Positions 2,596 through 20,881 of a DNA stretch of 23,737 bases are shown here, piece after piece; position 1 is the first letter of the stretch, and every line of letters begins with the position of its first letter. Source of the stretch: a virus (lineage: Duplodnaviria; Heunggongvirae; Uroviricota; Caudoviricetes). The notes below the pieces were generated by a model. It was not told where the DNA came from. It saw nothing but the letters and a program-made list of their open reading frames with translations, and searched no databases. The stretch lies in IMG/VR virus record IMGVR_UViG_2740892036_000009, positions 1-23,737 of that record; one strand, given 5' to 3'. The position numbers were made by a program, and so were the translations under genes.

Positions 2596-2820
2596 ATGCA
2601 TATAGTTTCTGAAAATCAGTGCGGTAAATACGCATTACTGCTGCAACAGGCCAGAACCGAAGCACAGGCCGATGCAGCGACGCGCTTTTCTTCTCATCTT
2701 GACGCCATGATTCGCCACATCACAAAGGCGGAGTTATCCCGCGTGGAGATAGTCGAGCTGCTCAGTCAGGAGTCGGAAAAATTTCACAATATCGGATTGT
2801 CTCGCGGGGAGGTGCTTTGA
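2596..2820 (+). CDS. hypothetical early protein (74 aa)
   Basis: ATG with GGAGAAAG SD; stop overlaps next start; in early operon. Confidence 0.45.
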
Positions 2821-3122
2821 TGTCCTGTTCTCGTTCAATTGTATTACTGAACAATGCATTAAAAATCTCCGTTATGAAAAATGGCGATTTGTCTCTTATT
2901 CAACTTAGGCTTGATAAAGAAAAACACGAAATAACTGAATCTGTTATCGCGATTTATCAGAACGAATTAAACCTCCTGTCTGATGTGGTCAATTTACTTG
3001 TGAAACGCGCTGTATTTCACAAGCAAATTTCCTCCGTAGATGAACTGACAAAAGTAACGGCTGAAATTGCCAGCTATTGCGCTGATGAATTTAAGAAACT
3101 GAACGACAAAAGGAGCTGGTAA
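2820..3122 (+). CDS. hypothetical protein (100 aa), AT-rich moron-like early gene
   Basis: ATG 2820 with GGGAGG SD 5-6 nt upstream; markedly lower GC than its neighbours; no recognisable motif. Confidence 0.45.
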   Translation: MSCSRSIVLLNNALKISVMKNGDLSLIQLRLDKEKHEITESVIAIYQNELNLLSDVVNLLVKRAVFHKQISSVDELTKVTAEIASYCADEFKKLNDKRSW

Positions 3123-3346
3123 TGCCGGACAACGTGGATTTTATTCAGGAACAACAGGCTGAATTACTGGAGCGCCAGATTAACGCGGCAAGGGTAAAGC
3201 ATTGCGGTGTTTCTGCGCTGGTTTGCGAAGAGTGTGACGCGCCAATACCTGCTGCCCGTCGTGCGGCTTATCCGTCAGCCACGCGTTGTGTTTCCTGCCA
3301 GTCAGTCTTTGAAGCAAAAAACAAACATTACCGGAGAACGGCATGA
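3122..3346 (+). CDS. TraR/DksA-family C4 zinc-finger protein (74 aa)
   Basis: CEEC-(x17)-CVSC spacing typical of TraR-type zinc finger; AAGGAG SD; ATG overlaps previous stop (TAATG). Confidence 0.65.
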   Translation: MPDNVDFIQEQQAELLERQINAARVKHCGVSALVCEECDAPIPAARRAAYPSATRCVSCQSVFEAKNKHYRRTA

Positions 3347-3618
3347 GTATTCGTATTGAAATTGGCGAACGTTATGTCGTTACCAGTGACAGCTTTCAGT
3401 TTATTCTCCACGAGAAAAAGAGAGCTGAAAGCGGTAAAAACGCCGGTCAGGAATGGCTGGCGGTGGTTGGTTATTACCCGAAATTAAGCCAGCTCGTTTC
3501 CGGCCTGATGCATCACGATATTCTGACCGGAAGCGCAAAGTCTTTTGCTGATTTAAACGCGCAGGTTGAGCAACTCAGCAGGCGTTGTTCAGAGGCTTTT
3601 GGCTCATATGGCCGTTAA
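3343..3618 (+). CDS. hypothetical early protein (91 aa), immediately upstream of A
   Basis: GGAGA SD, ATGA overlap with previous gene; conserved position before A. Confidence 0.45.
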   Translation: MSIRIEIGERYVVTSDSFQFILHEKKRAESGKNAGQEWLAVVGYYPKLSQLVSGLMHHDILTGSAKSFADLNAQVEQLSRRCSEAFGSYGR

Positions 3619-5884
3619 AGCCTCCGGGCGTTTTGTCCCTCCGTCAGCATTTGCCGCAGGCACCGGTAAGGCGTTTATCGGTGCTTATGCATGGAACGCG
3701 CCACGCGAGGCCGTCGGGCGCGAAAGACCCCTTACACGTGACGAGATGCGTCAGGTGCAAGGTGTTTTATCCACGATTAACCGCCTGCCTTACTTTTTGC
3801 GCTCGCTGTTTACTTCACGCTATGACTACATCCGGCGCAATAAAAGCCCGGTGCACGGGTTTTATTTCCTCACATCCACTTTTCAGCGTCGTTTATGGCC
3901 GCGCATTGAGCGTGTGAATCAGCGCCATGAAATGAACACCGACGCGTCGTTGCTGTTTATGGCAGAGCGCGACCAGTATGCGCGCCTGCCGGGGATGAAT
4001 GACAAGGAGCTGAAAAAGTTTGCTGCCCGTATCTCATCGCAGCTTTTCATGATGTATGAGGAACTCTGCGATGCCTGGGTTGATGCACATGGCGAAAAAG
4101 AATCGCTGTTTACGGATGAGGCGCAGGCTCACCTCTATGGTCATGTTGCTGGCGCTGCACGTGCTTTCAATATTTTCCCGCTTTACTGGAAAAAATACCG
4201 TAAAGGGCAGATGACCACGAGGCAGGCATATTCTGCCATTGCCCGCCTGTTTAACGATGAGTGGTGGACTCATCAGCTTAAAGGCCAGCGTATGCGCTGG
4301 CATGAGGCGTTACTGATTGCTGTCGGGGAGGTCAATAAAGACCGTTCTCCTTATGCCAGTAAACATGCCATTCGTGATGTGCGTGCGCGCCGCCAGGCAA
4401 ATCTGGAATTTCTTAAATCGTGTGACCTTGAAAACAAGGAAACCGGCGAGCGCATCGACCTTATCAGTAAGGTGATGGGCAGTATTTCTAATCCAGAAAT
4501 TCGCCGGATGGAGCTGATGAACACCATCGCCGGTATTGAGCGTTACGCCGCCGCAGAGGGTGATGTGGGGATGTTTATCACGCTGACCGCGCCGTCAAAG
4601 TATCACCCGACACGTCAGGTCAGAAAAGGCGAAAGTAAAACCGTCCAGCTAAATCACGGCTGGAACGATGAGGCATTTAATCCAAAGGATGCGCAGCGTT
4701 ATCTCTGCCATATCTGGAGCCTGATGCGCACGGCATTCAAGGATAATGATTTACAGGTCTACGGTTTGCGTGTCGTCGAGCCACACCACGACGGAACGCC
4801 GCACTGGCATATGATGCTTTTTTGTAATCCACGCCAGCGTAACCAGATTATTGAAATCATGCGTCGCTACGCGCTCAAAGAGGATGGAGACGAAAGAGGA
4901 GCCGCGCGAAACCGTTTTCAGGCAAAACATCTTAACCGGGGCGGTGCTGCGGGGTATATCGCGAAATACATCTCAAAAAACATCGATGGCTATGCACTGG
5001 ATGGTCAGCTCGATAACGATACCGGCAGGCCGCTGAAAGATACTGCTGCGGCTGTTACCGCATGGGCGTCAACGTGGCGCATTCCGCAATTTAAAACGGT
5101 TGGTCTGCCGACAATGGGGGCTTACCGTGAACTACGCAAATTGCCTCGCGGCGTCAGCATTGCTGATGAGTTTGACGAGCGCGTCGAGGCTGCACGCGCC
5201 GCTGCAGACAGTGGTGATTTTGCGTTGTATATCAGCGCGCAGGGCGGGGCAAATGTCCCGCGCGATTGTCAGACTGTCAGGGTCGCCCGTAGCCCGTCGG
5301 ATGACGTTAACGAGTACGAGGAAGAAGTCGAGAGAGTGGTCGGCATTTACGCGCCGCATCTCGGCGCGCGTCATATTCATATCACCAGAACGACGGACTG
5401 GCGCATTGTGCCGAAAGTTCCGGTCGTTGAGCCTTTGACTTTAAAAAGCGGCATCGCCGCGCCTCGGAGTCCTGTCAATAACTGTGGAAAGCTCACCGGT
5501 GGTGATACTTCGTTACCGGCTCCCACACCTTCTGAGCACGCCGCAGCAGTGCTTAATCTGGTTGATGACGGTATTATCGAATGGAATGAGCCGGAGGTCG
5601 TGAAGGCGCTCAGGGGCGCATTAAAACACGGGCTGAGAACGCCAAACCGTCAGCAAAGAAACGGAAGCACGTTAAAACCACATGAAATTGCACCATCGGC
5701 CAGACTGAGCCGGTCGGAACGATTGCAAATCACCCGTATCCGCGTTGACCTTGCTCAGAATGGAATCTTGCCCCAGCGATGGGAGCTTGAGGCGCTGGCG
5801 CGTGGGGCAACCGTAAATTATGACGGGAAACAATTCACGTATCTGGCTGCTGATGAGTGGCCGGGATTCTCAACAAACATATAA
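3608..5884 (+). CDS. A: replication initiation endonuclease A (rolling-circle nickase), 758 aa
   Basis: Protein from MAVKASGRFVPP... is near-identical to my recollection of P2 gpA, including the HxH-type motif region (PHWHMMLF) and active-site Tyr region (YIAKYISKNIDGY); ATG 3608 with GAGG upstream. Confidence 0.85.
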   Translation: MAVKASGRFVPPSAFAAGTGKAFIGAYAWNAPREAVGRERPLTRDEMRQVQGVLSTINRLPYFLRSLFTSRYDYIRRNKSPVHGFYFLTSTFQRRLWPRIERVNQRHEMNTDASLLFMAERDQYARLPGMNDKELKKFAARISSQLFMMYEELCDAWVDAHGEKESLFTDEAQAHLYGHVAGAARAFNIFPLYWKKYRKGQMTTRQAYSAIARLFNDEWWTHQLKGQRMRWHEALLIAVGEVNKDRSPYASKHAIRDVRARRQANLEFLKSCDLENKETGERIDLISKVMGSISNPEIRRMELMNTIAGIERYAAAEGDVGMFITLTAPSKYHPTRQVRKGESKTVQLNHGWNDEAFNPKDAQRYLCHIWSLMRTAFKDNDLQVYGLRVVEPHHDGTPHWHMMLFCNPRQRNQIIEIMRRYALKEDGDERGAARNRFQAKHLNRGGAAGYIAKYISKNIDGYALDGQLDNDTGRPLKDTAAAVTAWASTWRIPQFKTVGLPTMGAYRELRKLPRGVSIADEFDERVEAARAAADSGDFALYISAQGGANVPRDCQTVRVARSPSDDVNEYEEEVERVVGIYAPHLGARHIHITRTTDWRIVPKVPVVEPLTLKSGIAAPRSPVNNCGKLTGGDTSLPAPTPSEHAAAVLNLVDDGIIEWNEPEVVKALRGALKHGLRTPNRQQRNGSTLKPHEIAPSARLSRSERLQITRIRVDLAQNGILPQRWELEALARGATVNYDGKQFTYLAADEWPGFSTNI

Positions 5885-5987
5885 AAATGATTGAAATGGT
5901 TGATTTTGCTTCCACTTGATGGTTGGTATCAGCAACTGATGGATCATGCGGAACTGCGTGGCAATCTTGCTTTGGAAGCATGTCATT

Positions 5988-6206
5988 ATGACTAATGCAT
6001 ACATTACTAGCTATGCGTCCGGTTCCGCCATTGTACTCGTGCAAGAGTCTCCGGCTGATGGCTATTGTTTACAAATTATGGTCAAAGAGAATCTGACCCT
6101 CTACGAGTTGGTCGGAGGGACTGAGATCGTCAGTGATAACTGCAGCCGTATGGGAGAAATAAATAATCCCAACCGTCCATATTTCTACCTTCACGCGTGC
6201 CCATAA
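5988..6206 (+). CDS. possible small ORF (72 aa) downstream of A (orf91 position); weak call
   Basis: ATG 5988 with GGAAG ~10 nt upstream; no recognisable motif; may be non-coding. Confidence 0.25.
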   Translation: MTNAYITSYASGSAIVLVQESPADGYCLQIMVKENLTLYELVGGTEIVSDNCSRMGEINNPNRPYFYLHACP

Positions 6207-6223
6207 TCTGTCACCACGTTGAC

Positions 6224-6271
6224 CATAGAAAACCCCGCCGACGCTGAAACTCGCTTTCAGTGCTGGCGGGG
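6224..6271 (-). terminator. rho-independent terminator for the minus-strand RT gene (GC stem CCCCGCCG...GGCGGGG followed by TTTTCT on the minus strand)
   Basis: Hairpin 6233-6271 read from sequence; T-rich run lies 3' of the stem only on the minus strand, downstream of the RT stop. Confidence 0.5.
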
Positions 6272-6371
6272 TTGAACAACGAGCTTGCGAGGCGTTAGGG
6301 ATGTCGAAATTTCATATGACTGTTCGCTTTAATGCTTAACGAAGTCATGTTGAGTTAATAACATTGTTTCG

Positions 6372-7916
6372 TTAAGCGCTGTGTTCCTTGTCGAATAAGT
6401 TCACTTCTTCTGGTGTAATATCAGTATCCATTTCTTCGAATGCATCTAAATCCACAATTTTTGTTTTTTTCAAAATTGATAGTATTTTCTGTTTGTTTTT
6501 ATTTTTGGCTGAACCCGGAATCCACTCTACATCCCACAGGCCATCAATGGTAAATGTTTTTTTTCCCTTGAGTTCATCATTTATGCGTTGACATAGGGCT
6601 GTTTTGTAATCGCCTTCCCATTGTGTGTGTATCTTCCCTTGAACTCGTTGAAACCAAATATCTAACATTTCAGTATTTGGTTGTTTACCTAGTTTACAAT
6701 GAAGTTGTTGTAACTTGCCAAATTTGAGTTCATCGTCGTCATAAAGGAAGGTCAAGAGTTTTGCGAAAATAGCCATTCCCACTGGGTAGGTGGTTGGGTT
6801 TTTAGCCATGATGCTTGAAATAATTCCAAGCATTGCATCTAGTTGATGCCCACTATTTGTGATCTTTTTCTTCCTAAATAATTTCCGCAAGAAATCATTT
6901 AAATATCTGACTGTAATTTTGGAGTTTTGATGTTTTAAAGAAAATAAATATATTGCATACAACATTTTCTGTAGGGAGTTGAACGACCCTTCTATAATAT
7001 ATTCTTTTTTTGCTGATTTAAGGGAGTGAAGAATGATGTCGTCATGTAGTTCTGTTTTTCTTGAGTTTAAATCAAGCCCAAACTCACCTAAGACCTCAAC
7101 CAAACACTTTGAGATTTTGTCCAAATCATCTTTACTGCTTGAAAATATTCGATAATCATCTCTGTAGCGAACTACTTTGTAATCCGTTATTTTTTGCTCT
7201 TCGGTTTTTTTTCTTAGCTGTAAATCAATTTCGCCTAAAATTAATTCGGCAAATGTATCCATCAACGTACTACCCAATGGTATTCCGTTTGTCTGATTAC
7301 TCATCATCATCTGGATATGAGTGTCAATCAATCGTCCTGGGTTATTGTTATTTTCTTTCTTTTTGGCCTCTTCTTTTGAGATGAATACCCATTCAAAGCT
7401 ATGAGTGTAAATAGAAGGGTAGAAGTTTGAAATATCTGTGCTGAACATGAACTCATACTCAAGAGCCAATGAAAGACTTTTTTGTTCAAAATCTTCCCAC
7501 CAGTTTAAAACAGATGCAGCTACGTTTGAGGTGTTCTTTTTGCTCACTGGGGTACTTGAGCATAAAAAAAGATCATTAGACTCAAACTCTCTAAATTTAT
7601 TCCTTATAGCATTCCAGTTGGAAGAGGATGTAATAAGTTTACAAAAATACACGTAGTACAGAGGATTAATTAGTGTTATTCGTCGCCAGCTATATAAGCC
7701 ATCTTTGCTGACTAAAACCTCGTAATTTATATTCTTCCCCATCAATGACTTGGAGTCAGGTTGGAAGTTGATTTTACCTTCATCTATCGCGGAGTTGATT
7801 TCTTCAAGCAAGGAAGAAAAATCGACATAACTGGGTAGCTCCAGAGTAGTGTATGAATCATGCTGCAGAAAATACTTAAGCGCTCTACCAGTAGTTAATT
7901 CATAAATCTTTTTCAT
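6372..7916 (-). CDS. reverse transcriptase, Abi-type (Abi-P2/AbiK-like standalone RT), ~514 aa from ATG 7916
   Basis: RT motifs in order: FMFSTDISNFYPSI (motif A Asp), GIPLGSTLMDTFAELIL (motif B), VRYRDDYRIF (YxDD motif C), LDLNSRKTEL (motif D); ~200-aa C-terminal extension; very AT-rich; occupies the tin/old cargo position of P2. Confidence 0.7.
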   Translation of the reverse strand: MKKIYELTTGRALKYFLQHDSYTTLELPSYVDFSSLLEEINSAIDEGKINFQPDSKSLMGKNINYEVLVSKDGLYSWRRITLINPLYYVYFCKLITSSSNWNAIRNKFREFESNDLFLCSSTPVSKKNTSNVAASVLNWWEDFEQKSLSLALEYEFMFSTDISNFYPSIYTHSFEWVFISKEEAKKKENNNNPGRLIDTHIQMMMSNQTNGIPLGSTLMDTFAELILGEIDLQLRKKTEEQKITDYKVVRYRDDYRIFSSSKDDLDKISKCLVEVLGEFGLDLNSRKTELHDDIILHSLKSAKKEYIIEGSFNSLQKMLYAIYLFSLKHQNSKITVRYLNDFLRKLFRKKKITNSGHQLDAMLGIISSIMAKNPTTYPVGMAIFAKLLTFLYDDDELKFGKLQQLHCKLGKQPNTEMLDIWFQRVQGKIHTQWEGDYKTALCQRINDELKGKKTFTIDGLWDVEWIPGSAKNKNKQKILSILKKTKIVDLDAFEEMDTDITPEEVNLFDKEHSA

Positions 7917-8121
7917 AATTAGTGATTTCTTCTTAAGTTGCGCACAAATAACTACCTGTTTTCTATCATGATAACGATGCGAATGCGAGCAATTCAGGAA
8001 GTGCATTACTCTGCATCGAAGCGCACGCAAGTCAGAGAACAATAACTGCCTGGCGACATCAGGACTGGCGCGCTAGTTGAGTGGTCATGCAACTGCATTA
8101 AAACCGCCCCATGAAGCGGGC

Positions 8122-8140
8122 GGGCGAGGCGGGGAAAGCA
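8122..8140 (+). other. cos: cos site: 19-nt P2-type cohesive-end sequence GGCGAGGCGGGGAAAGCAC
   Basis: Exact 19-mer as I recall it for the P2 cohesive end, followed by CTGCGCGCT; located between A-side cargo and Q as expected for a P2 prophage; recalled from memory, not searched. Confidence 0.55.
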
Positions 8141-8365
8141 CTGCGCGCTCCATTAACGACCATTGCATAATACTATTAGCCTATGAATCGAGTCATGAGA
8201 TGTTATCTTTACGATTCAGGCGAGTGCTTTCGTTACGATGAGTTGGTTTAAGCACACTATCTGCACAAAAAATAATCTGTTGAAGCGATTCATCATTCCT
8301 AACGCTCTAGAGTCTTAAATAAAAATATGTAAAATGCGTAAAATTTTTTGAATTATGGATCAGCT

Positions 8366-9448
8366 ATGCTTGGAACTTCATCACAAAGAGCTATTTCAGT
8401 ACAACATGTTGATTTAAATGTAAAGTGTTGGGTCGTTAGACCTGGGATTAAGTATAGATATTTTGCAGACTTCCTTGAACGCAATATGGTTGCTACTGCT
8501 CACTTGGATAGGTTAAGTCCAGATCAAATTGACTTTAATGATGAAATTAACCATGAAAATATTAATCAAAAGGTTGATGGGTTAGATACTATTGGTTCAA
8601 GAAATATTCATACCCAAATTGAAAATTTCCTCATAGATATGCAGGTCGGTGATGTTGTTTTCACTTTGTCAGGTGATATGGTTGTTCCTGGAGTTATTGC
8701 ATCTTCCGCGTATTTTGAGCGTGAATGTTTAGGTAATAATGAAGGGTTTCATGTAAGACGTAGAGTCACATGGGGAGAGCCAGTTCGCAGACGAGAGATT
8801 CCATTAGCTCTTCAGAAATCGTTTACTGCATACCAGACCGTATTCTCTTTGGGCGGGAAGTCAGAAGAAGTACTGCATTGGTTAATGTCATTCTTTATAA
8901 CGGATAATATTTTCTGTACTAGCTTAAGAGTCGAGCAAGCAGAAGCCATTCGGCATCATACTCTTAAGCAGCTGGCTGAGCTGGTCGATAGAGTGCAGGT
9001 ACTTGCGCTATTAATTGGCGAAGAGTTTGATGGCGAGTATACAAACGAAGTTGTTCAGTTTGAGATGGAAAGACTTTCTAATAATGGAGAGTTATCCTTG
9101 ACTGCTCAACAAATGTTGATGTCTCCGGGGGATGTTTGGCTACAATTTAAAACAAATAATAGAAAGGCCGGAATTGCGTTTATGTTAATTATGGGGGCCA
9201 TTTTTAATCATGATGTAGCCTTCGCTTCAACGGTTGATAATCGTATAAGTGAGGAACTTCGATCTCATATTGAAGGGAAAAAAGAGGTTGCAATGGATGG
9301 ATTAAACTTTGATAGAGTTTCTCAAGTTCTAGAGTTGCGTTTAAAAAGACAAAATAGAGGCTTTGTTTCTGCTCGTCCAACGAACCGTGAGATCGGACAG
9401 GGGATCAATTTCCCTGAAGATGGTGATGCGAGGCATGCGAGTGACTAA
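8366..9448 (+). CDS. hypothetical protein, 360 aa from first in-frame ATG (track start 8348 is TTG); cargo gene 1 of a two-gene operon
   Basis: Long uninterrupted ORF in a low-GC island; no catalytic or nucleotide-binding motif recognisable by eye; stop is 2 nt before the next ATG. Confidence 0.55.
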   Translation: MLGTSSQRAISVQHVDLNVKCWVVRPGIKYRYFADFLERNMVATAHLDRLSPDQIDFNDEINHENINQKVDGLDTIGSRNIHTQIENFLIDMQVGDVVFTLSGDMVVPGVIASSAYFERECLGNNEGFHVRRRVTWGEPVRRREIPLALQKSFTAYQTVFSLGGKSEEVLHWLMSFFITDNIFCTSLRVEQAEAIRHHTLKQLAELVDRVQVLALLIGEEFDGEYTNEVVQFEMERLSNNGELSLTAQQMLMSPGDVWLQFKTNNRKAGIAFMLIMGAIFNHDVAFASTVDNRISEELRSHIEGKKEVAMDGLNFDRVSQVLELRLKRQNRGFVSARPTNREIGQGINFPEDGDARHASD

Positions 9449-9450
9449 CT

Positions 9451-10140
9451 ATGAACTTTGAATTTGTAAAAGAACACTGGCTGATAATAGGCATGCTATT
9501 CATAGCATGTCTATTATTAATTTTAAAATTCAAAGATATTTACAGAACACACGATCAGTTTAATAACGTCGTGATGTCATTGTGCGCTGTTTTGACACTT
9601 GTGTGGGGAGGATATACTTTTGATGTTTTGCACCAAAGGGATAAGGCAGAAGCTGATCTTATAGAGTTAAGAAATAGAATTAGAAATACAGAATCGACAT
9701 TTTTTAATGTTGACGTTAATGTTGTTAAAATCGATGATGTGTTTTATATAAAGCCTATTGTAACTATTAGGAATAACAGTAATGAGCGAATTTATGTGAA
9801 GCTTAATAACAAGTCCCTTGCTGTTAGTCGTGTTTTATCGGCCGGTGCAAAGCAAGTCGCTACGGAAGTTTTTTATCCAAATTATTATGAGGAGTTGGCT
9901 GTTCTTAATGAAGAAAGTAGCTCGCAAGGAAAAGCTAAAAATATACCTTTATATGATATATCCGTTCCTATCTCTGCCGAAAGACGCTTGAACTATCTTG
10001 TTTCGACAAAAGAAAAAGGAATGTATTATGTAACATTTAGTGCTGAGGCAATGAACGAAGATGGCTCGCCTGTTTCTAAATACATAAATGGGAAAAAATC
10101 TATATGGTTTTCTTCTTCATATATTGAAGTTAAAGATTGA
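9451..10140 (+). CDS. hypothetical membrane protein, 229 aa, two predicted N-terminal TM helices plus soluble C-terminal domain; cargo gene 2
   Basis: Hydrophobic stretches WLIIGMLFIACLLLIL and VVMSLCAVLTLVWGGYTF; tightly coupled to gene 1; low GC. Confidence 0.55.
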   Translation: MNFEFVKEHWLIIGMLFIACLLLILKFKDIYRTHDQFNNVVMSLCAVLTLVWGGYTFDVLHQRDKAEADLIELRNRIRNTESTFFNVDVNVVKIDDVFYIKPIVTIRNNSNERIYVKLNNKSLAVSRVLSAGAKQVATEVFYPNYYEELAVLNEESSSQGKAKNIPLYDISVPISAERRLNYLVSTKEKGMYYVTFSAEAMNEDGSPVSKYINGKKSIWFSSSYIEVKD

Positions 10141-10207
10141 ATTTCTATTAAACCATATAGTAATTGAAGGTGTTGGGGGTTAATCTTGCCTGGATTGCAT
10201 AGAATCA

Positions 10208-10225
10208 CGCCGTCTGGAGACGGCG
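10208..10225. terminator. inverted repeat CGCCGTCT-GG-AGACGGCG between convergent cargo operon and Q; probable terminator hairpin
   Basis: Perfect 8-bp arms read from sequence, 10 nt beyond the Q stop; no strong U-tract on either strand. Confidence 0.4.
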
Positions 10226-10235
10226 CTAAGGGTAC

Positions 10236-11264
10236 TTAATTAGATTCTAGACTGTAATCTTTAAAGCGGATGACCTCCTGACCGAGCCAGCCGTTTATCT
10301 CGCGGATCCTGTCCTGTAACGGGATAAGCTCATTGCGGACAAAGACCTTTGCCACTTTCTCAATATCACCCAGCGACCCGACGTTCTCCGGCTTGCCCCC
10401 CATCAACTGAAAGGGGATGCGGTGCGCGTCCAGCAGGTCAGCGGCGCTGGCTTTTTTGATATTAAAAAAATCGTCCTTCGTTGCCACTTCACTGAGCGGG
10501 ATAATTTTAATGCCGTCGGCTTTCCCCTGTGGGGCATAGAGAAACAGATTTTTAAAGTTATTGCGGCCTTTCGACTTAACCATGTTTTCGCGAAGCATTT
10601 CGATATCGTTGCGGTCCTGCACGGCATCGGTGACGTACATGATGTATCCGGCATGTGCGCCGTTTTCATAATACTTGCGGCGGAACAGCGTGGCCGACTC
10701 ATTCAGCCAGGCAGAGTTAAGGGCGCTGAGATATTCCGGCAGGCCGTACAGCTCCTGATTGATATCCGGCTCCAGCAGGTGAAATACGGAGCCGGGCGCG
10801 AAGGCTGTCGGTTCGTTGAAGGACGGCACCCACCAGTAAACATCCTCTTCCACCCCACGGCGGGTATATTTTGCCGGTGAGGTTTCCAGTCTGATGACCT
10901 TACCGGTGGTGCTGTAACGCTTTTCCAGAAACGCATTGCCGAACACCAGAAAATCCAGCACAAAGCGGCTGAAATCCTGCTGGGAAAGCCACGGGTGCGG
11001 AATAAACGTTGAAGCCAGAATATTACGTTTGACGTAAATCGGTGAGCTGTGATGTACGGCAGCACGCAGGCTTTTTGCCAGACCGGTAAAGCTGACCGGT
11101 GGCTCATACCATCTGCCGTTACTGATGCACTCGACGTAATCCAGAATGTCACGGCGGTCGAGTACCGGCACCGGTTCACCAAAGGTGAATGCCTCCATTT
11201 TCGGGGCGCTGGCGGTCATTTTTTTTGCCGCTGGTCGCGGTGTTTTCCCTTTTTTCTTGCTCAT
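10236..11264 (-). CDS. Q: portal protein Q, 342 aa
   Basis: Protein matches P2 gpQ-type portal in length and sequence as recalled; start ATG overlaps P stop (ATGA). Confidence 0.85.
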   Translation of the reverse strand: MSKKKGKTPRPAAKKMTASAPKMEAFTFGEPVPVLDRRDILDYVECISNGRWYEPPVSFTGLAKSLRAAVHHSSPIYVKRNILASTFIPHPWLSQQDFSRFVLDFLVFGNAFLEKRYSTTGKVIRLETSPAKYTRRGVEEDVYWWVPSFNEPTAFAPGSVFHLLEPDINQELYGLPEYLSALNSAWLNESATLFRRKYYENGAHAGYIMYVTDAVQDRNDIEMLRENMVKSKGRNNFKNLFLYAPQGKADGIKIIPLSEVATKDDFFNIKKASAADLLDAHRIPFQLMGGKPENVGSLGDIEKVAKVFVRNELIPLQDRIREINGWLGQEVIRFKDYSLESN

Positions 11265-13036
11265 CAGTAAAACTCCAGAATGGTGGATGTCAGCGGAGTG
11301 CTGATACCCGCGGTGAGTGGCTCATTTAACAGGGCGTGCATGGTCGCCCAGGCGAGGTCGGCGTGGCTGGCTTCCTCGCTGCGGCTGGCCTCATAGGTGG
11401 CGCTGCGTCCGCTGCTGGTCATGGTCTTGCGGATAGCCATAAACGAGCTGGTGATGTCGGTGGCGCTGACGTCATATTCCAGACAGCCACGGCGAATAAC
11501 GTCTTTTGCCTTGAGCACCATTGCGGTTTTCATTTCCGGCGTGTAGCGGATATCGCGCGCGGCGGGATAGAACGAGCGCACGAGCTGGAACACGCCGACA
11601 CCGAGGCCGGTGGCATCAATACCGATGTATTCGACGTTGTATTTTTCGGTGAGTTCGCGGATGGATTCAGCCTGGGTGGCAAAGTCCATGCCTTTCCACT
11701 GGTGACGCTCAAGTATTCTGAATTTGCCACCGGCCACCACCGGCGGTGCCAGCACCACGCATCCGGCACTGTCGCCACGGTGTGACGGGTCGTAACCAAT
11801 CCATACCGGACGTGAGCCGAACGGATTGGCGGCAAACGGCGCATAGTCTTCCCATTCTTCCAGCGTGTCGACCATGCAGCGTTGCAGCTCCTCGAACGGG
11901 AACACCGACGCCTTGTCGTCAACAAATTCACACATGAACAGGTTTTTAAAATCGTCGGCGCTGTTTTCGCGTTTAAGCTGCTCAATGTCGAACAGCGTGC
12001 AGCCACCTTTCAGGGCGTCCTCAATGGTGACAATCTGCCGCCACTGGCCGTCCGCACAGAGAAGACCTCCGGCAAGTGCGTTATGACTGACGTCGATTTC
12101 CACGCGTTCGGCGGCGCTGGCGCGTCCCCGGTTGAACAGTTCACCCGACCAGAACGGGTAGGCGTCGTGCGCCAGCGTGGACGGGGTGGAGAAATAGGTC
12201 GAGCGCAGGTGACTCTGTGAGGCCATACCTGATGCCACCTTACGCAGTACCTGAAAATTCGGGATCCAGAAAATCTCGTCGACGTACAGGTCGCCGTTAT
12301 GGCTCTGTGCGGTGTTGGAGTTGGTGCCGAGAAAAATCAGTTTTGCGCCGTTATTGCCCAGGACAATCGGGTCACCGGTAAGGTCAACGTCAACCAGACG
12401 GGCAAAGGCGATGATGTATTCGCGGAACACATACGCCTGCGTTTTACTGGCCGACAGAAAAATCTGGTTATGACCGGTTTTCAGGGCGCGCAGCAGCGCC
12501 TCGCGGGAAAAATAAAACGTCGCGCCAATCTGGCGGGATTTCAGGATATCGCGGATGCGGTGCTCAAGCCCGGCACGATACCAGTGCAGCTGATAGTCGA
12601 AAGACTGCTCAAAGAAAATCTGCTCCAGCTTTTCGATGGCCTCGTCACTGAAAAAATTCTTTTTCGGTTTGCGCCGTCCGCCTTTGTTACGGTTAGCGAC
12701 GTTCGGATTAAGGTCTGCCTCGTTGCCGGTCTGGCTGTAGCGGTTGACCCGTGCCAGTCGTTCAATCTGGCGTCCCAGCAGGTCAATTTCCTTGAAGTCA
12801 CCGCCGGTTTTCTGTGGTTTGATGATGAGCTGGGTCAGCCGCGCTTCCAGACTCATTTCGACACGGCTGATGGGGGCAACACTGTCCCAGCCGTCGCGCT
12901 GTTTCCAGCTCTGCACCGTCGGGCGTTTCATCTGCAACATGGCGGAAATCTGCGGCACGGAAAACCCCTGCCAGTACAGCAGCGCCGCCTGACGACGCGG
13001 GTCGTGTAAAAGAGTGGTGTCTGTGGTGATGGTCAT
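11264..13036 (-). CDS. P: terminase large (ATPase) subunit P, 590 aa from ATG 13036
   Basis: Protein from MTITTDTTLLHDPRRQAALLYWQGFSVPQI... matches P2 gpP as recalled; upstream of Q on the same strand. Confidence 0.85.
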   Translation of the reverse strand: MTITTDTTLLHDPRRQAALLYWQGFSVPQISAMLQMKRPTVQSWKQRDGWDSVAPISRVEMSLEARLTQLIIKPQKTGGDFKEIDLLGRQIERLARVNRYSQTGNEADLNPNVANRNKGGRRKPKKNFFSDEAIEKLEQIFFEQSFDYQLHWYRAGLEHRIRDILKSRQIGATFYFSREALLRALKTGHNQIFLSASKTQAYVFREYIIAFARLVDVDLTGDPIVLGNNGAKLIFLGTNSNTAQSHNGDLYVDEIFWIPNFQVLRKVASGMASQSHLRSTYFSTPSTLAHDAYPFWSGELFNRGRASAAERVEIDVSHNALAGGLLCADGQWRQIVTIEDALKGGCTLFDIEQLKRENSADDFKNLFMCEFVDDKASVFPFEELQRCMVDTLEEWEDYAPFAANPFGSRPVWIGYDPSHRGDSAGCVVLAPPVVAGGKFRILERHQWKGMDFATQAESIRELTEKYNVEYIGIDATGLGVGVFQLVRSFYPAARDIRYTPEMKTAMVLKAKDVIRRGCLEYDVSATDITSSFMAIRKTMTSSGRSATYEASRSEEASHADLAWATMHALLNEPLTAGISTPLTSTILEFY

Positions 13037-13209
13037 GAATACCTCGCCGTGATGAATACACGGCAAGGCTACTGAGTCGCGCCCCGCGATTCGCTAAGGT
13101 GCTGTTGTGTCAGTGATAAGCCATCCGGGACTGATGGCGGAGGATGCGCATCGTCGGGAAACTGATGCCGACATGTGACTCCTCTAATCACTATTCAGGA
13201 CTCCTGACA
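13037..13209. promoter_or_regulatory. divergent late promoter region (PP leftward, PO rightward); contains decamer TGTTGTGTCA at 13103-13112
   Basis: Intergenic region between divergent P and O as in P2, where Ogr-dependent late promoters lie; decamer recurs upstream of V. Confidence 0.4.
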
Positions 13210-18965: not shown

Positions 18966-19416
18966 GTTTAAGCGTTTTGAAGACCGGATGACCGGACTGA
19001 TTGAGTCGCTGTCACCGTCAGGGCGTCGGCGACTGGCGGTAGATATTGCGAAGAAACTGCGCCAGCGCCAGCAGCAGCGAATTAAATTACAAAAAGGCCC
19101 AGATGGTACGCCGTATGTACCGAGAAAAAACCAGCCAGTGCGAAATAAGAAAGGCCGGATAAAGCGGGAAATGTTTGTGAAATTACGCACTAACCGGTTT
19201 ATGAAAGCAACAGGTAGCGAGAGTGCGGCGGTGGTGGAGTTTGCCAGCGGAGTGCAACGAATTGCGCGAGTACATCAATTAGGGCTTAAGGATAAGCCGG
19301 GGCGTAATAGTGCTGTGGTGGAATATCCTGTTCGTGAGTTATTTGGTTTTGACAAGGAATCTATACAATTGATAGAAAGGGAGTTATTAGTGATTCTATC
19401 GAAAGATGTTATATGA
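18958..19416 (+). CDS. S: tail completion protein S, 152 aa; 3' ~100 nt are AT-rich and look replaced
   Basis: P2 gpS-like N-terminal 115 aa; ATG overlaps R stop; C-terminal codons share the low GC of the downstream cargo. Confidence 0.75.
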   Translation: MNEFKRFEDRMTGLIESLSPSGRRRLAVDIAKKLRQRQQQRIKLQKGPDGTPYVPRKNQPVRNKKGRIKREMFVKLRTNRFMKATGSESAAVVEFASGVQRIARVHQLGLKDKPGRNSAVVEYPVRELFGFDKESIQLIERELLVILSKDVI

Positions 19417-20168
19417 GACGGGTGTTTATGGATGAAAAGTTTTCTATTTTGAGAAAAAGAGTAAAGCACTCTCAAAAGAAAGTTATGGATTGTATTATTG
19501 TTGACCATAATGCTGATATATGTGTGTTATGCGGGAGTTCTGACGATATTACTCGTGAGCACATTATTCCTCAGTGGGCCTTTGAGTCAAATACTGAAAA
19601 ATCTTTAATTAATAAAAAGAATAATCAGTCAACTCATTACATTAAAGCCACTGTACCAGCATGCAGAGTGTGCAATTCTGATTTGCTGGGAGTGTTTGAG
19701 TATAACCTGAAGAAATTTCTTACGGAAAAGAGGGGAGAGGAGTTAACAGATTATGAGTATGATTGCATCATATGGTGGTTGCAATACATGGGTTTTAAGT
19801 TGCAATTAATGGATTTGCGGAACCGCTTTCTCAGGTATAAAGGTGGTGATTATATCCCGTTCCTTGCAAACTTTCCGGTTGCAATGTTTTGGGGGAATGT
19901 CGATACGACGCCGGGGGATGTCTTCAGGATTATACGAAAATCGCGACGCAATCTGATGTCGAAATGGAAGGATAAAAAACATAATTCTTTGATGGTTTTT
20001 GAAACATCAAACAAGAGTTTTCATTTCTTTCATAAGGTTGATGAATTTATTTTTATTGAAATGCCTCAGGTTAAGAAGGCGTTTTTCTTCTTTTTTAATA
20101 AAGAATTTGACAGCCATGATTTAGCTCATGAGGAGTGTATGAAGATTATAGAGAAGTGCTACAACTAA
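19413..20168 (+). CDS. HNH-nuclease-motif protein, 251 aa, AT-rich cargo between S and V (alternative start ATG 19428)
   Basis: CVLCG-x7-EHIIPQ ... CRVCNSDL = CxxC ... H ... CxxC(N) HNH-type signature in the N-terminal third; low GC; sits at the variable S-V junction (orf30 position in P2). Confidence 0.55.
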   Translation: MRRVFMDEKFSILRKRVKHSQKKVMDCIIVDHNADICVLCGSSDDITREHIIPQWAFESNTEKSLINKKNNQSTHYIKATVPACRVCNSDLLGVFEYNLKKFLTEKRGEELTDYEYDCIIWWLQYMGFKLQLMDLRNRFLRYKGGDYIPFLANFPVAMFWGNVDTTPGDVFRIIRKSRRNLMSKWKDKKHNSLMVFETSNKSFHFFHKVDEFIFIEMPQVKKAFFFFFNKEFDSHDLAHEECMKIIEKCYN

Positions 20169-20245
20169 TATTTATTATGTTGTGTCACAGCTGACAGAAT
20201 CCTCCATGATTGCTGCTGGTATCGTCCAGCGGCATCCTTCCCGTT
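20169..20245 (+). promoter_or_regulatory. candidate late promoter PV region with decamer TGTTGTGTCA (20178-20187) and CAGCTG-centred partial dyad
   Basis: Same decamer as in the P/O intergenic region; P2 has an Ogr-activated late promoter upstream of V; exact TGT-N12-ACA spacing not found. Confidence 0.3.
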
Positions 20246-20881
20246 ATGAACACTCTCGCAAATATTCAGGAACTCGCGCGCGCACTGCGCAACATGATTC
20301 GTACCGGCCTTGTCGTCGAAACCAACCTTAAAGCCGGTCGCTGCCGTGTGCAGACCGGCGGCATGTGCACCGACTGGCTTCAGTGGCTGACCCATCGCGC
20401 CGGACGTTCGTGCACATGGTGGGCACCTTCCGTGGGGGAGCAGGTGCTGATTCTGGCCGTGGGCGGTGAACTTGACACGGCGTTTGTTCTGCCGGGGATT
20501 TATTCCGGCGATAACCCTCCGCCGTCTGCGTCGGCGGATGCCCTGCATATCCGTTTCCCTGACGGGGCGGTGATTGAGTATGAACCCGAAACCAGTGCAC
20601 TTACGGTAAGCGGAATTAAAACGGCCAGCGTGACGGCTTCTGATTCTGTTACCGCCACGGTGCCGGTGGTCATGGTGAAAGCATCAACCCGCGTCACCCT
20701 GGACACACCGGAGGTGGTCTGCACCAACAGGCTGATTACCGGCACGCTGGAAGTGCAGAAGGGCGGGACGATGCGCGGCAACATTGAACACACCGGCGGT
20801 GAACTCTCATCAAACGGTAAGGTACTTCATACCCATAAACACCCCGGCGACAGCGGCGGCACAACCGGGAGTCCTTTATGA
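20246..20881 (+). CDS. V: baseplate spike/assembly protein V, 211 aa
   Basis: MNTLANIQELARALRNMIRTGLVVE... matches P2 gpV as recalled (track start 20210 is upstream non-ATG). Confidence 0.85.
   Translation: MNTLANIQELARALRNMIRTGLVVETNLKAGRCRVQTGGMCTDWLQWLTHRAGRSCTWWAPSVGEQVLILAVGGELDTAFVLPGIYSGDNPPPSASADALHIRFPDGAVIEYEPETSALTVSGIKTASVTASDSVTATVPVVMVKASTRVTLDTPEVVCTNRLITGTLEVQKGGTMRGNIEHTGGELSSNGKVLHTHKHPGDSGGTTGSPL

Follow-up and report, generated by a model that had tools for sequence, protein, structure and literature searches.

The stretch of DNA analysed here, referred to as the window, comprises positions 1 to 23,737 of the virus record IMGVR_UViG_2740892036_000009. It is a P2-like prophage with its genes in the order gpA, cargo region, Q and P, followed by the usual O-N-M-L head genes. 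The interval 5885-10235 is the exact gap between the gpA stop (5884) and the Q stop (10236), and is the published gpA-gpQ defence hotspot of P2-like phages. Very probably, two cassettes are present in this interval, each of them autonomous and exchanged independently of the other, adjoining from either side a 56-bp cos core (8094-8149, plus strand): a reverse transcriptase (RT) gene of the Abi-P2 type on the left, and two genes for a DUF8426 protein (gene 1) and a membrane-anchored partner (gene 2), together called the pair, on the right. The pair is probably an uncharacterised anti-phage system.

The mosaic structure of the interval was established by comparison with related prophages. When the whole interval was used as a megablast query, no record covering at least 80% of it was returned; instead, its two halves matched different records. 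The left half (5885-8149) is 99-100% identical in E. coli 2017.02.04CC, in phage pro147 and in the P2-EC58 fragment of Odegrip et al., and in all three of them the identity ends at 8149. Seven complete E. coli genomes match the right half (8150-10235) at 99.8% identity or more, and likewise the right cassette as a whole (8150-10253, plus strand), which lies in the spacer between cos and Q; in P2 and in E. coli 2017.02.04CC the same spacer is short, at about 160-167 bp. Identity to the right module begins at 8080-8094 (loci L003, L022, L023, and L024), and at 8080-8087 in the three distinct loci aligned from the seven genomes; its right junction was placed at about 10254, within the last codons of Q, where homology with locus L002, which has no right cargo, restarts. 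Eight cos regions (the window, pro147, 2017.02.04CC, Logan contig L003, EF7-18-58, H9Ecoli, Res13, and P2) were anchored on the 19-nt cohesive end, and the block common to all eight, from which the cos core was defined, spans offsets -29 to +26 only, with a single varying A/G position. Sequence to the left of the core tracks the left cargo and sequence to its right tracks the right cargo; on these alignments the module boundaries coincide exactly with the two ends of the core. The left side is itself composite. A small open reading frame (ORF) of unknown function (5946-6206, plus strand, 72-86 aa; phrog_13272, E 2.8e-54) goes with the RT, being found by tblastn solely in the RT-bearing loci L001, L002, and L014-L016 and absent where there is other left cargo, and the segment 6224-6298 is common to RT-less relatives. 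A repeat search of the interval revealed no flanking direct or inverted repeats hinting at transposition or site-specific insertion.

The borders of the interval correspond to those of the hotspot. The replication gene A (gpA, 3566-5884, plus strand; Pfam Phage_GPA PF05840, E 9.8e-123) is about 96-99% identical among all P2-like relatives up to about 5865-5875 and divergent beyond, and the portal gene Q on the other side (10236-11264, minus strand; Pfam Phage_portal PF04860) is 96-100% identical across related prophages; terminase gene P follows (11264-13066, minus strand). The cargo lies between gpA and Q with cos inside, and at least six left contents and at least three right contents were found between gpA and Q genes that are about 96-100% identical. 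Known or candidate defence systems are present in both settings, namely AbiP2 in the window and retron IV/Ec48, retron VI and PDC-S06 in relatives. The locus was described as a cos-adjacent anti-phage hotspot by Rousset et al. in 2022 (PMC9122126), citing Odegrip et al. (2006); according to that paper many P2 hotspots carry more than one system, non-defence cargo such as partition systems and toxins also occurs, and recombination next to cos at such loci is offered as speculation. AbiP2 is listed among the P2 systems in a 2026 NAR survey (PMC13586616).

An earlier note on this DNA, made from the sequence alone, had described much of this layout. The divergent arrangement around cos that it proposed agrees with the ORF list, in which the RT lies on the minus strand (6372-7916/8042) and the two-gene operon on the plus strand (8348/8366-9448 and 9451-10140). 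The cohesive end was correctly recognised, and only its position had to be shifted, from 8122-8140 to 8123-8141 (plus strand): the 19-mer GGCGAGGCGGGGAAAGCAC occurs there once, as an exact match (0 expected from shuffles), and matches P2 (NC_001895) perfectly at positions 1-19, annotated as cosL, that is, the 19-nt cohesive end of P2 cosL/cosR. The linear record of phage 186 terminates where it aligns to window positions 8121-8122. A shared intergenic region of about 300 bp holds for the longest ORFs (305 bp) and grows to about 449 bp with ATG starts. That the two cargo sets would come to lie at opposite ends of the linear virion is in line with the P2 record, which has old/tin at its right end and Q at its left. 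The view of the cargo as a single low-GC island of about 4.3 kb had to be abandoned. The GC content is 0.357 in the RT cassette (6299-8058) and 0.371 in the right cassette (8150-10235), with 0.54 in the cos-proximal left arm (8003-8093) and 0.66 in the cos core between them, and 0.53-0.57 in gpA, Q and P. There are thus two low-GC blocks, parted by a cos segment of normal to high GC content, and not one compositional island; together with the breakpoints, this describes a mosaic of separately inherited segments.

The co-occurrence of the RT and the pair was determined across 5,426 complete E. coli genomes and in contexts outside P2-like prophages. The same RT allele (at least 99% identity) is present in 64 of the genomes, and the pair in none of these 64. 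In the sampled loci the cos-Q slot beside the RT is either empty (160-167 bp, as in P2) or filled by a type IV retron, whose second gene is named 'retron Ec48 family effector membrane protein' in RefSeq and which is recognised as RT_IV plus 2TM_IV by PADLOC. Conversely, the identical pair (at least 99.8%) was found in seven complete genomes, and the RT module is adjacent to it in none of them. The left cargo in the four of these seven that were examined is a type VI retron (helix-turn-helix protein plus RT_VI), a 311-aa protein of unknown function, or a stretch of about 860 bp with no annotated gene. Draft and Citrobacter pair loci carry on the left one of two versions of an AAA_13-type ATPase assigned to the PADLOC candidate PDC-S06, and Abi-P2 as the left neighbour of the pair was met in the window lineage only. 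The PDC-S06 proteins, observed to the left of cos in loci L003/L004 and L013, are of about 740 aa with a PrrC-like C terminus, and their genes have opposite orientations in the two cases. In Table S5A of Rousset et al. (PMC9122126), some gpA-gpQ loci are listed with WP_024234794 and WP_024234795 as their sole genes.

Homologues of the pair were also recovered outside the hotspot: at the end of an island resembling a phage-inducible chromosomal island (PICI), with a D5_N/Pox_D5 primase, AlpA and PerC, beside host xdhC (68% identity); adjoining a P4-type primase in a P4-like satellite; beside icd in Serratia (45% identity); and in Pseudomonas grimontii (41% identity). No RT was found near the homologues in these PICI-like, P4-like, Serratia, and Pseudomonas loci. 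Wherever a locus was long enough to tell, gene 1 and gene 2 were neighbours, over a range of identities from 100% down to 40%, and the gene 2 counterpart of a distant gene 1 homologue is still related to gene 2 (hhalign probability 99.2%). Because the two genes are always adjacent and their homologues occur without an RT, the pair constitutes a unit and the RT stands outside it. A tblastn search of 50,697 phage records with both proteins gave no match, and a scan of species-representative genomes returned the pair in three loci, too few for cross-species statistics. The earlier note had weighed independent modules at the two sides of a hotspot against one functional unit made up of an RT and accessory proteins, and had suggested co-occurrence analysis to decide between them; with each module found without the other, and the two assorting independently, the first of these views is upheld and the second falls by the independent occurrence that the note itself had named as contrary to it.

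The left cassette encodes an RT-like abortive-infection polymerase (6372-7916, minus strand, 514 aa from ATG) that was assigned to AbiP2 by PADLOC (E 1.8e-159), with the match extending from position 4 to position 487 of the 489 in the profile, and the similarity takes in the palm and fingers of the RT as well as its C-terminal helical domain. Against residues 32-540 of PDB entry 7R08 (Abi-P2 of P2-EC30; E 1.8e-255), identity is 74% over 508 residues, the DNA of the gene is 99.2% identical to that of P2-EC58 and pro147, and a YRDD active-site motif is located at residue 251 of the 514-aa product. Judged by this similarity, the RT is the known Abi-P2 in an allelic variant. It also occurs alone: the same allele is found with an empty cos-Q slot and with the small ORF as its only fellow cargo gene. 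Assignment as a retron was considered and rejected, the best-matching family being AbiP2 and no retron family; nor was any noncoding RNA family found in 5700-10400 with Rfam (E≤1), and hence no retron or DRT-type noncoding RNA. The start codon is ambiguous between 7916, 7949, 8006, and 8042: the longest ORF (6372-8042) begins with TTG, RefSeq uses the ATG at 7916 (coding sequence 2765-4309 in locus L002), other gene callers start at 7949, and 'orf544' in P2-EC58 matches a start at the ATG of position 8006.

According to Figiel et al. (2022, PMC9508834), Abi-P2 genes are located in the variable region of P2-like prophages, the orf570 product of EC30 gives resistance to T5, and Abi-P2 forms a stable trimer when purified and polymerises DNA in a protein-primed, template-independent manner; T5 exclusion, trimer formation and template-independent synthesis were established for the EC30 homologue only, as distinct from the window allele. 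The left cassette takes the position and orientation of P2 old/tin, and its product would act as a single-gene abortive-infection polymerase. The old-tin mRNA of P2 starts about 150 bp to the left of cosR, so that by analogy the promoter of the RT would lie within the left arm; such a location would fit with the occurrence of the RT beside right-hand sequences of three different kinds.

Two observations on the distribution of this allele were made in passing. Many complete E. coli chromosomes (NZ_AP027754.1, NZ_CP047461.1, NZ_CP029180.1 and others) begin with the first base of the prophage gene gpA, and in at least 12 records the RT accordingly has the coordinates 2765-4309, probably as a result of assembly-rotation tools that mistake the phage replication gene for the start gene of the replicon. 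An Abi-P2-bearing P2-like element is also present on three records classed as plasmids, namely NZ_CP018956.1 (pEC316_KPC, 216 kb), NZ_CP104682.1 (210 kb), and NZ_CP146689.1 (67 kb), and the full gpA-RT-Q-P-O-N arrangement was seen on one of them, a KPC plasmid.

In the right cassette, gene 1 (8366-9448, plus strand) encodes a protein of 360 aa from ATG, or of 366 aa from the TTG at 8348. It belongs to DUF8426 (PF28530) according to precomputed Pfam matches for the protein and its homologues, and RefSeq gives the identical protein that name. At 90% identity its close relatives, which come from Enterobacterales and Pseudomonas, fall into 47 clusters, and a profile search returned 902 representative clusters at E≤1e-3, nearly all of them of about 330-400 aa. 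The AlphaFold2 model is confident (pLDDT 82, pTM 0.80) and shows a PUA-like fold in the N-terminal 110-140 residues or so, as in the EVE, YTH, ASCH, and McrB-N readers of modified bases. The PADLOC profile PDC-S02 was matched in part (about profile positions 3-185 of 324, E 2.5e-12); membership in PDC-S02 was rejected, the full-length match having failed and the similarity being confined to the N-terminal part. A segment of a type II restriction endonuclease profile likewise matches the N-terminal part only, and in ten distant family members the matches to both profiles are N-terminal only as well. Invariant residues of the reader domain include W22, R25, Y30, H46, D48, and D96. The C-terminal half is marked by the invariant motifs HH.LK.L.E..DR.QV and QQ.LMSPGD.W, the latter with MSPGD at residues 252-256. 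Inspection of the invariant residues of gene 1 by eye revealed no convincing HEPN (Rx4-6H) or PD-(D/E)xK motif, and no match to a nuclease domain (HNH, PD-(D/E)xK, GIY-YIG) was obtained in residues of about 190-340 of gene 1 or in gene 2.

Gene 2 (9451-10140, plus strand, 229 aa) encodes the membrane-anchored partner. Its model (pLDDT 73) consists of two N-terminal hydrophobic helices and a long helix, followed by a β-sandwich for which the structural matches are generic only. A weak promoter candidate upstream of gene 1 was read manually. Two further observations concern the loci that carry the pair. The prophage of E. coli EF7-18-58 (L022, NZ_CP068591.1) is decayed, with a truncated portal gene, no terminase and a partial baseplate gene J, and keeps the pair and a type VI retron at 100% identity; in this locus the cargo appears to outlive the phage. 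In Enterobacter ludwigii (L026, CP195344.1) an extra ORF of 357 aa (10544-11617) with no PADLOC match lies between the pair and the portal gene, from which it follows that the cos-Q slot can hold more than one cassette.

The reader fold of gene 1, the constant pairing with gene 2, and the location in slots where known defence systems are present elsewhere together suggest a sensor that works with a membrane-acting partner. Gene 1 would be a cytoplasmic protein whose EVE/YTH-like N-terminal domain possibly reads modified bases and senses a feature of phage nucleic acid; gene 2 would be the β-sandwich partner acting at the membrane, and the pair would be a candidate abortive-infection or exclusion system. 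This particular mechanism is proposed tentatively and is rather doubtful in its details, and the anti-phage role as such is considerably better favoured. A separate promoter probably serves each cassette from the side of cos on which that cassette lies, and neither would depend on the other or on cos being joined. In its widest form, the proposal is of a new two-gene system in which the reader domain detects modified phage DNA or RNA and signals to the membrane partner rather than to a nuclease, which occupies a distinct cos-Q sub-slot, and whose hotspot consists of two independently recombining slots around the 56-bp core; taken as a whole, this is possible rather than likely.

Several points weigh against the reading of two autonomous cassettes with a defence role for the pair. 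The C-terminal half of gene 1 gave no fold or family match, and no nuclease or other effector motif was detected. The model of gene 2 is of moderate confidence only, and its topology prediction is ambiguous. A sigma-70 consensus scan of the interval returned fewer sites than shuffled sequences did, so that the promoters were not placed. The combination of RT and pair recurs: DNA identical to the window is present on the metagenome/Logan contigs L014-L016, in an E. coli-type context with an integrase beside yegR. All of these are 100% identical and probably represent one prophage lineage, as far as their sequences indicate; some selective benefit of the combination may nevertheless exist. Finally, a different RT, that of the type VI retron, lies to the left of cos in two pair-bearing prophages.

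Among the alternatives, the one that fares best is that the pair is no anti-phage system but another kind of moron, for example one for lysogenic conversion of the surface or envelope, or a factor of the phage life cycle. Partition systems and toxins among the hotspot cargo, as reported by Rousset et al. (PMC9122126), would be in keeping with such a role. So would the resemblance of gene 2 to an envelope-anchored β-sandwich protein, possibly a surface or periplasmic factor, and the outcome of the family searches, in which neither protein matches a validated defence family and the PADLOC match is partial and to a candidate family only. On the other hand, the same slot holds retron Ec48 elsewhere (by RefSeq name and by PADLOC RT_IV plus 2TM_IV), and retron Ec48 is a validated defence system. 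The pair is moreover found repeatedly in accessory regions of mobile elements, of which three kinds are represented, as well as in chromosomal islets. The N-terminal fold of gene 1 is the one used by modification-dependent restriction enzymes, and two profiles, one for a defence candidate and the other for a type II restriction enzyme, are matched by this domain. A role outside defence is therefore unlikely, although it has to be taken seriously.

A second alternative grants the mechanistic independence of the cassettes and supposes that their combination is selected for complementary ranges, for example with Abi-P2 directed at T5-like phages and the pair at those whose DNA is modified. The presence of more than one system in many P2 hotspots (PMC9122126) is compatible with this, and the combination of RT and pair persists in at least three samples. 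It was found in none of the 5,426 complete E. coli genomes, however, although both modules are present there separately, and this absence is what chance recombination of two uncommon modules would lead one to expect; selection for the combination is accordingly held to be improbable.

The third alternative joins the RT and the two-gene operon into one unit, with the DUF8426 and membrane proteins as accessories or effectors of Abi-P2 and with divergent expression under one control region common to both, which would be present only in DNA with cos joined; it draws on the adjacency, divergence and low GC content of the two, on contigs L014-L016, on the type VI retron RT beside the pair in two other prophages, and on the fact that certain defence RTs require partner proteins. 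It is very improbable, given that neither module accompanies the other in the complete genomes (0/64 and 0/7), that the PICI-like, P4-like, Serratia, and Pseudomonas homologues of the pair are free of an RT, that on either side identity stops right at the cos core, that contigs L014-L016 count as one lineage and not as independent co-occurrences, and that the orf570 product gives T5 resistance and purified Abi-P2 is a stable DNA-polymerising trimer (PMC9508834).

The cos region that separates the two autonomous cassettes contains further conserved elements. Two TGCAT motifs 10 bp apart (8002-8016, plus strand) have the same offsets in six otherwise unrelated left arms (the window, L003, L022, L023, L024, and P2). 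In all, TGCAT is found at about -121, -111, -101, and -29 from the cos cut (7998-8022 in the window), and its density across the six arms is 3.8 per 140 bp, against 0.18 expected. The phasing of about 10 bp suggests a terminase-binding element, and the set probably serves as a left-arm accessory element in packaging, with putative terminase binding; if so, about 125 bp of the left arm probably belong to the functional cos. Such an extended cos would overlap the longer versions of the RT ORF (starts 8006 and 8042).

Three hairpins were also recorded. Inside the cos core, a GC-rich hairpin followed by TTTT (8104-8123, minus strand) was detected by a terminator scan and is kept in all cos regions compared; it resembles a terminator toward leftward transcription from the Q side, and may insulate the left cargo. 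The hairpin GCCGTC-TGGA-GACGGC (10209-10224), located where gene 2 and Q converge, was read from the sequence, and a similar hairpin is kept in the Citrobacter homologue; it is probably a bidirectional terminator that replaces the tQ of P2, which occupies the equivalent position relative to Q. The conserved segment 6224-6298 (plus strand, GC 0.57), to the right of which the RT cassette is inserted, includes a GC-rich hairpin (6231-6273, inverted repeat I2). It is 87-91% identical to phage 186 and to prophage L024, both of which are without the RT, and probably serves to terminate transcription of the rightward early operon.

Outside the interval, a third low-GC block (19000-20250; GC 0.37-0.40, with flanks of about 0.58) was noticed in the late/tail region just after the tail-completion gene S. 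Its ORF (19413-20168, plus strand, 251 aa) matches phrog_10503 (unknown function) only, with no match in Pfam, PADLOC or NCBIfam. The block may be another cargo slot, at a position that we take to be that of P2 orf30.

Most of the finding is already known, the gpA-gpQ hotspot and Abi-P2 having both been published, and it is largely ordinary; its residual interest lies in the uncharacterised pair and in the two-slot anatomy of the hotspot. The passages of the hotspot literature that were covered (PMC9122126, PMC13586616) treat one hotspot and do not state that two independently assorting slots flank a sharp 56-bp core. Two slots that reassort around such a core fit the speculation on cos-adjacent recombination by Rousset et al. 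(PMC9122126). In the literature covered, no characterisation of the DUF8426 pair and no paper text on its accessions or on 'DUF8426' was found. Being conserved and mobile, the pair is a reasonable candidate for defence-system screening.

Compared with known systems, the window resembles the gpA-gpQ (old/tin) hotspot of P2 in its gpA and Q borders, in having cos inside, and in its low-GC content that varies among syntenic prophages. Its RT is transcribed leftward to the left of cos, as are old/tin; in P2 itself the cos-Q spacer is empty (167 bp), whereas both sides of cos are occupied in the window. The RT agrees with the Abi-P2 of P2-EC30 and P2-EC58 in full-length homology, position, orientation, the YRDD motif and the lack of a partner gene. 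The pair shares its slot and orientation with retron Ec48 (type IV, an RT with a two-transmembrane effector), and like it is compact and ends in a small membrane protein; it differs in that the right cassette of the window has neither an RT nor an Rfam noncoding RNA, in the PUA-like domain of gene 1, and in that gene 2 is not homologous to 2TM_IV. In fold or profile, the N-terminal 110-180 residues or so of gene 1 resemble type IV restriction enzymes with EVE/PUA-like readers (VcaM4I, the N domain of McrB) and PDC-S02. Unlike modification-dependent restriction enzymes, gene 1 has no detectable nuclease domain and is always accompanied by a membrane partner, and if the proposed mechanism is correct, the pair would represent an unusual joining of a modified-base-reader fold, free of any detectable nuclease, with a partner at the membrane.

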